Shown here: in pieces, positions 33,203 through 48,892 of the stretch | Numbering within the stretch: the stretch's first letter is position 1 | Layout: each line of letters starts with the position of its first letter | Source: Fulvivirga sp. | GTDB taxonomy: Bacteria; Bacteroidota; Bacteroidia; Cytophagales; Cyclobacteriaceae | Direction of reading: 5' to 3' | DNA length: 64,000 nucleotides | Assembly (NCBI GenBank): GCA_048268855.1 | Contig: JBLWUR010000006.1 | Span: forward strand, 38,474-102,473 | Translations under genes and position numbers: made by a program | Notes under the pieces: generated by a model | The model's database searches: none | What the model saw: only the letters and a program-made list of their open reading frames with translations | Told to the model about the DNA's origin: nothing

Positions 33203-33366
33203 CTACCTCCAACATTAGATAAAAAAATAGAGCTCTACTATTTCAAAGTTAATTGGTTCTACTAAGTCAACAAAATTACTGTTTGTCTCTCCACGTTTTT
33301 GAGCAGAACCATTAATTTGACCCTTCATAAAAGTCGCATTCCCGAAGAAATTGTTTGAAGCACAAC

Positions 33367-33399
33367 AAAAAAACCTCCCCCGACACAGCGGGGGAGGTT
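33367..33399 (-). terminator. Intrinsic terminator of the dcw/ftsZ transcript
   Basis: Minus strand AACCTCCCCCG-CTGTGT-CGGGGGAGGTT followed by a T-tract. Confidence 0.92.
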
Positions 33400-33404
33400 C
33401 AATT

Positions 33405-33495
33405 AAAAAATGACATTGCAGCACCGGCCAAAAAATTTACAACCAACAACCACTACGAATTGGAAAGTAAGCCGGTTTTAATGCTGCATCTGTCA
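33405..33495 (-). ncRNA. Candidate structured 3'-UTR element or sRNA downstream of ftsZ
   Basis: Three outer helices UGACA/UGUCA, UGCAGC/GCUGCA and ACCGGC/GCCGGU enclose a 42-nt interior antisense to the ftsA and ftsZ initiation regions; followed by U6. Confidence 0.5.
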
Positions 33496-33505
33496 ATCAG
33501 TGGAT

Positions 33506-35056
33506 CTAGTCCACATTATCGTGTAAGAATTTGTTGTTACCCAAAATCTGATTGTCATCGTTCAAATTATACTTTGATACATGAGGTTCAGAAGAATGAG
33601 GAACATTGTTGAGCCTTACATCTTTGCGCAAAAATGCAGGTATGTCAAGTTTCTCCTTAAACTCATTGGCGTTCATCTCCGCTTTGCTTAAGCCTTTCAG
33701 CTTATTAATACGCTCTTCCGCCTGTAGTCTAAGTCGTTCCTTTGTAGAGCGCACGTCCATCATGCCATCATCATTGATCAACTGATCAGAATCATCTTCA
33801 TCTACAATCTCAAACTCTTCGTCCAGCTCAGTGAATAAGCCATCATCTCCATCCATTTCATCTTCTTCACTTATATTGCTTTCAGGTCTGCCAAAAGAAT
33901 AACTAGGTGATGATTTGGGTTCTTCCTCCTCCTCTATACGAGAGGTGATCTCACTTTCACGTCTATCGTTCACCGAATTATCGGTATTAAACAAGTTGAT
34001 CTGCTCGTGAGCTTCGAGGTCAAATACCCTTTTGCCTTCCTCTTCTTTTTCTTTGGCGACAGGCGCAACTGGTTTTTTAACATTTTTATCAAACCCAGTA
34101 GCTATTACTGTTACTCTTATGCTTTCTTCCAAACTAGGATCAACCCCGTGACCGAAAATTACTTCAGCTTCATCTCCTGCTTGTTCCTGAATGTATTCAG
34201 TGATCTCTGTTAATTCATCCATTTGCAATTCAGCCTGATCGCCAGAAATGATCGAAAGCAAGATTTTCTGAGCACCGAGAATATCTCTATTGTCCAATAA
34301 TGGAGAAGATAGTGCCTCTTCAGCCGCTCTTCTTGCTCTGTTGTCACCTTTGGTGGTGGCAGAGCCCATAACGGCAGCACCCGCATTGTGCATAACAGCT
34401 TTCACATCTTGAAAATCGACATTGACATAACCCGCAACAGTGATGATTTCAGCTATGCCTTTGGCAGCCGTTGTCAATACATTATCTGCTTGTGCAAAAG
34501 CACTTCCAATAGAAAGGTTGCCATGGATCTCACGGAGTTTATCATTCAAAATAACTAACACGGTATCGCAGCATTCTTTCAAAGCATTGATCCCTAATTC
34601 GGCCTGAGCCATTTTCTTTTTGCCTTCAAAAGAGAAAGGAGAAGTGACAATACCTACAGTGAGGATGTCCATTTCCTTTGCTATTTTGGCAATCACAGGA
34701 GCGGCACCTGTACCAGTACCTCCACCCATTCCTGCGGTAATAAATACCATTTTGGTATCTGTACCCAGCAGGTCGCGTATGTCTTCTTTACTTTCCAGCG
34801 CTGCATTTTTTCCAACTTCAGGATTGGCACCCGCACCAAGACCTTCGGTGAGGTTCACTCCTATTTGGATTTTTGCAGGTATTGCGCTTGATTTTAAGGC
34901 TTGTGAGTCAGTATTACATACAACAAATTCTACATCTTTAATGCCCTGATTGTACATGAAGTTGACTGCGTTACTTCCGCCACCCCCAACGCCAATTACT
35001 TTAATAATCGACTTGTGGTGCTTTGGAATCTCGAATTTATATCCATTGTCCTCCAT
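33506..35056 (-). CDS. ftsZ: Cell division protein FtsZ
   Basis: [23 protein letters not shown], tubulin signature [18 protein letters not shown]-terminal LDIPAFLRK after a long acidic linker; ATG 35056. Confidence 0.98.
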
Positions 35057-35090: not shown

Positions 35091-36392
35091 CTAGTAGTCT
35101 TTGCCCCCATCGAGGTCATCGATTAACAAGCCTTTTGTTTTATTTAATATTTTAGCAAAGAAGTCTCCACTAGATACCTTTTTATGGGCTACTAATTTTC
35201 CGCCTCCTTTTGCTTCTTTGTATCGCTCCTCCCTATTGTCGAGCGCACGGAATCCAGAGAGTACCAACCCAACTGTGGTAGCGTACATTGGACTTTTTAC
35301 AATATCTACCTTGCTCTTCCCAAGGTGTTCATTTGGATAACCGACACGTGTATCCATGCCAGTCATATATTCTACAAGTTGTTTCAAACTGTTGAGCTGT
35401 GCACCACCACCGGTGATCACAATTCCACCAGCCAATCTGTTTTCAAAACCAGAAGTAATGATTTCAGCATGAGCTAACTCTACAATCTCTTCCATCCTTG
35501 CTTCTATGATATTGGCAAGGTTTCTTACAGATATCTCCTTTGGAGCTCTATTTCTAATTCCTGGTATCGATACTATCTCATTAGGACTAGCCTCTTCGCC
35601 AATCGCTTTACCAAACTTAGTTTTTAGCAATTCAGCTTGATGCTGCATGACCATACACCCTTGCTTGATATCAGAAGTAACGATGTTGCCTCCAAATGGA
35701 ATGACAGCGGTGTGTCTGATAATATTATCGTGGAAAATAGCGATGTCTGTTGTTCCACCACCTATATCGATAAGGCAAATACCTGCTTCTTTCTCTTCTT
35801 CACTTAGCACAGCAAGACTTGAAGCCAATGGCTCAAGAATGAGGTTTTCTATTTCCAGCCCTGCTCTTCTTACGCATTTGTTGATATTATTGATCGCATT
35901 GGTTTGAGCGGTGATCACATGGAAATCAGCTTCCAGCTTCACCCCTGACATCCCTACAGGATCTTTAATGCCCTCTTCATAGTCTACTGTGTAGTCTTGT
36001 GGCATTACATGTATAATCTCACTCCCTGGAGGGATTACAATGCGATACATATCATTGGTCAATCTGTTGATATCCTCAATGGTAATTTCGTCATCGTTGC
36101 TTGATCGGGTAATGCTACCGTGATGAATGGAGCTTTTAATGTGCTGGCCAGCAATGCCCACATTAACGACCCTAATGTCGATGCCTGCTTGCTCTTCAGC
36201 TTCTTTTACTGCTTTTTCAATTGCGTTTACAGTTTTGTCTATGTTGGTAACAATGCCACGGATTACGCCATCCGATTCGGCTTTGCCCATTCCCAAAACT
36301 TCGAGTTTGTCGTACTCGTTCTTTCGCCCCACAATCGCGCAAATTTTTGTGGTTCCAATATCGAGTCCGACTACAATTTTGTCATTTTCCAT
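35091..36392 (-). CDS. ftsA: Cell division protein FtsA
   Basis: [42 protein letters not shown]. Confidence 0.98.
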
Positions 36393-36430
36393 GGTTGTAA
36401 ATTTATTTTTAGTGGTTGTTTCTTTTTTTA

Positions 36431-36496
36431 GTTCAATGTTTTATGTTCTAAGTTTTAAGTCGAGTTCAACTTTGAACTCTGCACTTTGCACTTTGA
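36431..36496. repeat. Two head-to-head heptamer arrays around a central hairpin
   Basis: GTTCAAT GTTTTAT GTTCTAA GTTTTAA, then GAGTTCAA-CT-TTGAACTC, then ACTTTGA ACTCTGC ACTTTGC ACTTTGA (reverse-strand units of the same GTTCAAA-like consensus). Confidence 0.75.
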
Positions 36497-48362: not shown

Positions 48363-48806
48363 TCATTCATCTAGGTATTTTTGTGCAAGCTTCGAAAATT
48401 CGGCTGGATCACTAATCAAATGCTGCTCAAACAGAGCTGGACTCCATATTTCTATCTTATTTCCCATACCTACTACCACTGCATCTTTCTCCAACTGGGC
48501 ATATCCAAGCATTAGTTTGGGAATGAGTAATCTGCCAGAATTATCAAGTTCAACCACAGAACTCCCTCTAAAGAAGTTCCGTTGTAGTTTTCGATACTCT
48601 TCATTGAATTCACTCAGACCTGCAATTTTTGAGTATATCTTTTTATACTCAATCATTGGGTAAATAATAAGGCAAGGTTCAAAACCTCTACGCACAACTA
48701 TCTCATTACCAGACGATTCTGGTAAATTAGCCTTGATCTTTGCTGGCAATACCAACCTGCCCTTGGCATCGATCTTACACTCATACTCACTAGTGAAAAA
48801 AGCCAT
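48363..48806 (-). CDS. mraZ: Division/cell-wall cluster transcriptional repressor
   Basis: IDAKGRLVLP and LDNSGRLLIP (tandem SpoVT/AbrB DxxGR motifs), GMGNKIEIW. Confidence 0.97.
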   Translation of the reverse strand: MAFFTSEYECKIDAKGRLVLPAKIKANLPESSGNEIVVRRGFEPCLIIYPMIEYKKIYSKIAGLSEFNEEYRKLQRNFFRGSSVVELDNSGRLLIPKLMLGYAQLEKDAVVVGMGNKIEIWSPALFEQHLISDPAEFSKLAQKYLDE

Positions 48807-48835: not shown

Positions 48836-48892
48836 CAAATTTAGAATAAAATCTGACATTTTCAACCACTTTCTACCACTTTACTCCACTTT
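48836..48892 (-). promoter_or_regulatory. dcw promoter (-7 and -33 boxes) with three MraZ boxes
   Basis: Minus strand: -7 TAAATTTG (48836-48843), GTTG 19 nt upstream (48863-48866), and AAAGTGG three times at exact 10-bp period (48866-72, 48876-82, 48886-92). Confidence 0.82.

Follow-up and report, generated by a model that had tools for sequence, protein, structure and literature searches.

The ftsZ transcript of Fulvivirgaceae-type Cytophagales, which closes the dcw operon, quite probably carries at its 3' end a new family of base-pairing regulatory RNA. The hairpin that follows ftsZ is a conserved structured RNA of the Fulvivirgaceae, which our searches found nowhere described. A/C-rich conserved sites for overlapping registers of its seed lie within the ribosome-binding windows of four genes: ftsA, ftsZ, dnaB and dnaE. 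The invariant loop is complementary to the starts of these genes, making the RNA probably a small-RNA regulator of the cell cycle.

The window analysed is the whole stretch of 64,000 nucleotides from Fulvivirga sp. (contig JBLWUR010000006.1, positions 38,474 to 102,473). It contains the following features:

33364 to 33400, minus strand (stem 33400-33371): second, canonical intrinsic terminator with a 12-bp GC-rich stem and a U-run, from a terminator scan
33405 to 33495, minus strand: structured RNA of about 91 nt, from sequence, fold and covariance-model match
33435 to 33459, minus strand: nearly invariant G/U-rich 25-nt seed UUCGUAGUGGUUGUUGGUUGUAAAU, made up of the apical loop and the 3' strand of the inner helices
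33506 to 35056, minus strand: ftsZ coding sequence, 516 aa
35069 to 35076, minus strand: ftsZ-leader site AACCACUA, complementary to the loop sequence UAGUGGUU
35091 to 36392, minus strand: ftsA coding sequence, 433 aa
36392 to 36404, minus strand: ftsA site 2, the 13-mer AAAUUUACAACCA, complementary to UGGUUGUAAAUUU
36410 to 36420, minus strand: ftsA-leader site 1, the 11-mer AACAACCACUA, complementary to UAGUGGUUGUU

The hairpin begins 10 nt beyond the ftsZ stop codon (33506-33508, minus strand). In the RNA sense it reads, from 33495 to 33411, TGACA GA TGCAGC ATTAAA ACCGGC TTAC TTT CCAA TTCGTAGTGGTTG TTGG TT GTAA ATTTTTTG GCCGGT GCTGCA A TGTCA, and a U6 tract (33410-33405) lies directly 3' of it. 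The outer helix is formed by TGACA with TGTCA and TGCAGC with GCTGCA and the middle helix by ACCGGC with GCCGGT, 17 bp in total. The inner helices, TTAC with GTAA and CCAA with TTGG, close an apical loop of 13 nt. The minimum free energy fold recovers the three outer helices with their 17 bp, and sequence, fold and U6 tract are exactly as an earlier note on this DNA had described them for 33405-33495. Over 151 nt (33360-33510, downstream terminator included) the z-score against dinucleotide shuffles is −4.26. Separate targets use separate registers of the 25-nt seed.

The element was seen in 92 Fulvivirgaceae-type loci, always just 3' of ftsZ and on the same strand. Its carriers are Fulvivirga, Ohtaekwangia, Chryseolinea, Dawidia, Chryseosolibacter, Parachryseolinea and many MAGs, with FtsZ 62-99% identical; FtsZ relatives assign the window to Fulvivirga, with L001 (MAG UBA1842) 99% identical in FtsZ, and Fulvivirga and Ohtaekwangia are both Fulvivirgaceae in the NCBI taxonomy. 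A covariance model derived from the hand-annotated structure matches the window at 33394-33505 (84.9 bits, E 1e-20), finds a single copy in this genome and detects the RNA in 76 of 80 related loci, with E values from 1e-31 to 1e-4. The outer helix varies freely in sequence yet keeps pairing. In the model-derived alignment, which is fitted to the model so that pair counts lean towards structure, compensatory changes occur at 12 of 12 outer-helix pairs, and 92.7-94.6% of cells are paired against 29-48% when the partners are slid, values reached by none of 500 shuffles. Independently, RNAalifold applied to a plain MAFFT alignment gives an 8-pair helix with double changes at every pair. The G-U pairs are compatible with the ftsZ-sense strand only.

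The loop, to go by its letters, is under strong selection. The sequence GUAGUGGUUGUUGG is identical in 70 of 70 aligned sequences from genera with FtsZ identities of 62-99%, G50-G63 of the first aligned sequence (GTAGTGGTTGTTGG) is invariant in the 70 sequences, and divergent lineages retain the architecture together with a GUGGUUGUUGG loop. Conservation of the hairpin had been named in the earlier note as a test of its proposal, and the hairpin passes it, with an outer helix that covaries and a loop that is invariant.

An order-wide sample contained the element in 3 of 151 genomes, all three in the window's own GTDB family. Within a sample of that family it was present in 28 of 151 genomes, corresponding to 24 of 132 genera, and was adjacent to ftsZ every time. 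No match to the covariance model was obtained in 143 other Cytophagales genomes or in 29 ftsZ loci sampled phylum-wide, with stricter filters that may miss divergent forms. Two or three tandem copies follow ftsZ in L015 (5660-5990), L128, L133 and L016, every copy with its own covarying stem and GUGGUUGUUG loop; tandem copies in some lineages are what would be expected of a dosage-sensitive RNA that acts in trans.

The RNA is probably co-transcribed with ftsZ, as suggested by its short distance from the ftsZ stop (median gap about 28 nt at the 92 loci) and by the lack of a Bacteroidota −7 box (TAnnTTTG, the one consensus used) within 70 nt upstream of it at all 92 loci. Its stem and U-tract may well terminate transcription. 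In Fulvivirga the RNA's own stem and U6 are backed up by the second terminator (33364-33400), where the terminator scan finds a stem and a U-run just as the earlier note had read a separate GC-rich terminator after the hairpin. This second terminator is missing in many other genera, and the RNA stem is in many genera the only terminator-like structure 3' of ftsZ; the outer helix with its U-tract either doubles as the operon terminator or directly precedes one. Several of its features are those of base-pairing sRNAs derived from 3'UTRs, such as CpxQ, SdhX and OppZ: location in a 3'UTR, a shared terminator of stem and U-tract, and absence of a promoter as far as a single consensus can indicate it. 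A purine-rich AAAGAnAUGGCA flank, AAAGA(n)AUGGCA, is conserved directly 5' of the outer helix in many genera (L018-L080) and could mark either the RNA's 5' terminus or a site of processing.

The interior of the hairpin (33433-33455) is the exact reverse complement of AACAACCACUA and AAAUUUACAACCA, with the two blocks in swapped order. ftsA site 2 adjoins the AUG and takes in its A, and its partner UGGUUGUAAAUUU is the 3' strand of the RNA's inner helices; the ftsZ-leader site AACCACUA ends 12 nt 5' of the AUG in this genome. These 13-, 11- and 8-nt antisense matches, and the swapped order of the ftsA blocks, agree in every letter with the earlier note. The 13-mer is found only twice in the 4.13-Mb genome, in the hairpin interior and in the ftsA leader, and the dinucleotide-shuffle check that had been proposed for it gave a match of at least 13 nt to the leader in just 6 of 5000 shuffled elements. 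The ftsZ 8-mer fails as a signal in this genome alone, being reached by 469 of 5000 shuffles, and its duplex energy, −11.3 kcal/mol, is just what shuffles give on average. The weight of the ftsZ site comes therefore only from its conservation in relatives. An RNAduplex ranking of start regions over the whole genome, noisy because the seed is G/U-rich, placed dnaB third of 7246 and gave ftsA −17.7, with ftsZ indistinguishable from shuffles. Exact matches of at least 9 nt at gene starts in this genome number 27 against about 19 expected by a rough estimate, meaning that matches within a single genome are mostly chance. A conserved-sequence search of the 15 contigs of this assembly (G000) with the 16S sequence GTGCCAGCAGCCGCGGTAA found no 16S rRNA gene.

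Leaders were compared between 92 distinct RNA-bearing loci and 40 loci of relatives in which no RNA was found. The motif AACCAC was distributed as follows:

ftsA leader, RNA-bearing loci: 90/92
ftsZ leader, RNA-bearing loci: 76/92
ftsA leader, RNA-less loci: 0/40
ftsZ leader, RNA-less loci: 2/40
other ORF starts in the same RNA-bearing loci: 5/494 (1.0%)
crude gene starts in this genome: 40/4239 (0.94%)

AACCAC as a general leader motif was rejected, since its presence at 0.94% of starts is about the chance level and a positional peak is absent. The usual form in ftsA is (A)ACAACCACUA, which ends a median of 18 nt 5' of the AUG (interquartile range 16-20); in ftsZ it is AACCACUAA, the AACCAC core of which ends a median of 15 nt 5' of the AUG (interquartile range 14-15). 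Several of the ftsZ leaders that have no AACCAC contain ACAACCAAC, the complement of GUUGGUUGU, which is a shifted register of conserved RNA sequence. ftsA site 2, in the form AUUUACAACC, likewise has flanks that follow the RNA sequence and not a shared core. The complementarity is thus conserved along with the hairpin: leader motifs of ftsA and ftsZ stand at set distances from the AUG, only in genomes that carry the RNA. This joint conservation lends support to what the earlier note had put forward, a riboregulator in the ftsZ 3'UTR predicted to act on the translation of ftsA and ftsZ.

In a tree of FtsA and FtsZ (FastTree, 133 rows, among them one further locus that ends too soon 3' of ftsZ for the RNA to be scored), all RNA-less loci group in a single clade (support 97). 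The RNA and the motifs therefore changed together once, and since the tree has this one change only, their co-distribution has the weight of a single event and was not taken as repeated independent evidence. Co-variation of the loop with the leaders, the other comparison to which the earlier note had looked, is sparse because the seed hardly varies, and it is borne out only in part. In L128 the loop GUGGUGGUUG (A to G) is accompanied by AACCACC in the ftsA leader (U to C), a double change from A-U to G-C. Dawidia and Parachryseolinea combine the RNA sequence GGUGGUAAA with the leader UUACUACC, a U-G compensation, and at ftsA site 2 UACAACC survives in 30 of the 50 loci where the RNA has GGUUGUA, versus 5 of the 33 where it has GGUGGUA. 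Against these hints stand several genomes with AACCACC leaders yet an unchanged GUAGUGG loop, L046 with GGUGG in the RNA and ACAACC in the leader, and L137 with a UACCACC leader and GGUUG in the RNA. Pairing also does not explain a conserved A that follows AACCACUA in the ftsZ and ftsA leaders. Just 5' of the ftsA leader sites, between ftsQ and ftsA, lies a long heptamer-repeat hairpin (36431-36496, minus strand), which could alter the accessibility of the ftsA leader.

Two further start regions with matches to the seed, found with no gene favoured beforehand, belong to replication genes elsewhere in the genome:

G000:C10:34143-35699, minus strand: dnaB, with the 13-mer CCAACAACCACUA in its start region
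G000:C3:339254, plus strand: dnaE (Pol III alpha), with AACCACUAC in this genome

The dnaB 13-mer, which ends 1 nt 5' of the AUG, is the best start-region match in an exact-complement scan of the genome. For dnaB, the median length of the longest Watson-Crick match to the seed is 11 nt among 19 RNA-bearing genomes and 5 nt among 20 RNA-less ones (p 5e-5); for dnaE it is 8 nt among 14 RNA-bearing genomes and 4 nt among six RNA-less ones (p 0.002). These p values, from one-sided Mann-Whitney tests, overstate the evidence because the genomes are related. The sites end 1-5 nt (dnaB) and 4-20 nt (dnaE) 5' of the AUG. At dnaB the site extends 5' into CCAACAACC, and G-U variants such as CCAACAACCAUUAC preserve pairing. 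Several relatives have at dnaE the 13-mer CAACCACUACGAA, the complement of UUCGUAGUGGUUG, and the site extends 3' into ...CUACGAA, which pairs with UUCGUAG; the dnaE complementarity explains why the 5' part of the loop is conserved. Two other candidates, purL (an 11-mer in this genome) and nrdA (AAACCACC in this genome), were rejected as targets because neither has conserved complementarity in five RNA-bearing genomes. They serve as negative controls, indicating that the comparative criterion discriminates.

Upstream of dnaB in RNA-bearing genomes (L154-L161), a conserved TAcgTTTG (−7 box) is followed by GTCGCCCTACGAA, about 35 nt 5' of the AUG. Beside CCAACAACCACU, the short dnaB 5'UTR thus seems to have another small site, CUACGAA, complementary to UUCGUAG. 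In L144 (G184:C14:15409-15712) a mini hairpin, aACTATtaGTGGTTGTTgATAGTc, lies upstream of dnaB with the RNA loop sequence in the sense orientation, and the dnaB start region of that genome has no complementary site. This mini hairpin might represent the regulator a second time, in minimal form.

The conserved single-stranded seed and the conserved sites complementary to it in target mRNAs are features of a base-pairing sRNA, and the ftsA and ftsZ sites, which lie on the RNA's own strand 1.6-3 kb upstream of it with no terminator between them and the RNA according to the scan, are arranged as for an autoregulatory one of the OppZ/CarZ type. In the mechanism we propose, the RNA would arise by read-through from ftsZ and either remain a 3'UTR or be excised as a stable RNA of about 90-110 nt. 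Pairing with leaders that have no Shine-Dalgarno sequence would be initiated by the loop and would block binding of the 30S subunit, lowering translation. The operon would in this way exert negative feedback on its own ftsA and ftsZ, and synthesis of the replisome (DnaB helicase and Pol III alpha) would be coupled to that of the divisome. The location of the sites within the 30S footprint of Shine-Dalgarno-less leaders suggests repression; that it is repression and not activation is a guess, in which we lean mildly to the former. We regard it as likely that a base-pairing RNA embedded in the 3'UTR and terminator represses translation of ftsA, ftsZ, dnaB and dnaE. To the fuller reading, a vertically inherited riboregulator in which one G/U-rich loop, through several registers, co-controls FtsA, FtsZ, DnaB and Pol III alpha via their Shine-Dalgarno-less leaders, we give slightly better than even chances.

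The earlier note had left the choice between a processed sRNA and a long-range contact within the mRNA. Action in cis only would mean that the element stays within the ftsQAZ mRNA and closes that transcript on itself by contacting its ftsA and ftsZ initiation regions, tuning the FtsA:FtsZ ratio with no free sRNA being made. The element is indeed on the same strand, adjoins the ftsZ stop and has no promoter box upstream, two of its targets are on its own operon transcript, and the swapped ftsA blocks suit alternative contacts. The conserved dnaB and dnaE sites, however, are on other contigs and other transcripts, which requires action in trans, and the tandem duplication of the RNA in some lineages better fits the dosage of a diffusible molecule. 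Action in trans is thus favoured over a purely intramolecular contact, which may operate at ftsA and ftsZ but could not serve dnaB or dnaE and is improbable as the whole account.

The motif might instead be read at the level of DNA, with GTGGTT/AACCAC as a transcription-factor site, MraZ being the candidate, and the complementarity a by-product of sites in opposite orientations. A regulator of division genes near ftsA and ftsZ makes biological sense, and the AAAGTGG(T/A) boxes at the mraZ promoter resemble UAGUGGUU. Three direct AAAGTGG boxes with 10-bp spacing (48866-48892, minus strand), the third of them AAGTGGTTG, lie upstream of mraZ (48363-48806, minus strand) and constitute a typical MraZ operator. 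Of 151 family genomes, 56 have such triple boxes; many of these, for example G273, G183, G226 and G168, lack both the RNA and AACCAC in their ftsA and ftsZ leaders, so that the leader motif tracks the RNA and not the MraZ boxes. The leader sites are moreover single and inverted, not 10-bp repeats, and their spacing is fixed relative to the AUGs. Their flanks extend the complementarity to the RNA in different registers, ACAACCAAC and AUUUACAACC doing so even without a CCACT core, and the downstream copy of the motif lies within a loop closed by an RNA helix that covaries. With neither at least three direct repeats at about 10 bp nor a distribution that follows MraZ, the operator reading is very improbable and was rejected. 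That the hairpin is only a terminator or 3'-end stabilising structure, perhaps with a protein-bound loop, and that the leader complementarity has no regulatory meaning, is hardly credible: it would suit a stem and U-tract at the operon end that is in many genera the sole such structure after ftsZ, but a terminator does not need an invariant 25-nt interior, four start regions have conserved motifs only where the RNA is present against a background of 1%, and the chance matches at purL and nrdA are not conserved, as expected if the comparative test discriminates.

If the trans-acting riboregulator is real, replication and division would be linked by an RNA that is hard-wired in the dcw operon. 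The division operon itself appears to bear a conserved regulator whose predicted targets span division and replication, and the element offers a sequence-defined case of an sRNA predicted to target Shine-Dalgarno-less, A/C-rich leaders in Bacteroidota. To our knowledge, post-transcriptional control in this phylum is little understood outside gut Bacteroides, and its members are reported to have neither Hfq nor ProQ; the only RNA control of ftsZ that we know of is by accessory or stress RNAs of enterobacteria (DicF, DinR and StfZ). The prediction is open to direct test, consisting as it does of four leaders and one 25-nt seed, with cultured hosts in Fulvivirga, Ohtaekwangia, Chryseolinea and Dawidia.

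When the element was scanned against Rfam 15 at E values up to 10, no family matched, DicF included; the best overlapping matches were rnk_pseudo (25.7 bits, gathering threshold 55) and Ref55 (26.8 bits, gathering threshold 43), with E values of 0.2-0.7. The sequences flanking ftsZ in 35 more loci, 15 of them from relatives and 20 from the phylum sample, likewise gave no gathering-level match to Rfam 15. Our literature searches found no description of a structured RNA downstream of ftsZ in Bacteroidota and, within their reach, no sRNA described for Fulvivirgaceae. A candidate motif called ftsZ-DE (ftsZ downstream element) is said to have been reported by Weinberg et al. 2017, and it is like our element, by name only, in being a conserved structure downstream of ftsZ. 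The main text of that paper does not mention ftsZ. If ftsZ-DE exists, it is not detectably the same RNA, judging from the lack of any Rfam 15 family that matches the element.

GcvB offers a likeness in the mode of recognition. In Salmonella and E. coli, the G/U-rich R1 seed of this RNA base-pairs with C/A-rich elements that precede start codons. The ftsZ-associated RNA has likewise a long, conserved, G/U-rich single-stranded seed, used in several registers, and C/A-rich sites in initiation regions. The two RNAs are unrelated: GcvB depends on Hfq, is encoded by an independent gene and has a regulon of amino-acid transport functions.

In its genetic arrangement the element resembles OppZ and CarZ of Vibrio cholerae, which are autoregulatory sRNAs derived from 3'UTRs (Hoyos et al. 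2020, as summarised in PMC9438474). According to that summary, they are encoded at the 3' end of an operon, share its terminator and are made 1:1 with the mRNA (PMC9438474), as the ftsZ RNA would be. They are also complementary to the translation start of a cistron inside their own operon, which points to feedback and to control of stoichiometry (PMC9438474), and this complementarity too has its counterpart here. A relation in sequence or structure is absent. The same summary describes OppZ as dependent on Hfq and RNase E and as acting through Rho (PMC9438474), which sets it apart from a phylum reported, as noted above, to be without Hfq. The ftsZ RNA further differs in having sites in two cistrons of the parent operon and in two unlinked replication genes, and in being a system deduced from genomes.

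In its predicted target it resembles two enterobacterial repressors of ftsZ translation described in PMC10907235, the sRNA DicF, which is encoded by a prophage, and the sRNA DinR, which derives from the 3'UTR of dinI. Like these, it is a small RNA predicted to pair with the ftsZ initiation region, and DinR too comes from the 3' end of an mRNA (PMC10907235). DicF and DinR are said there to sequester the Shine-Dalgarno sequence and to be accessory RNAs under stress or prophage control (PMC10907235). The RNA described here is instead vertically conserved within the dcw operon, faces A/C-rich leaders that have no Shine-Dalgarno sequence and matches ftsA, dnaB and dnaE as well. It stands outside all the families of OppZ, CarZ, DicF and DinR, and would constitute a new RNA family of a known regulatory kind.
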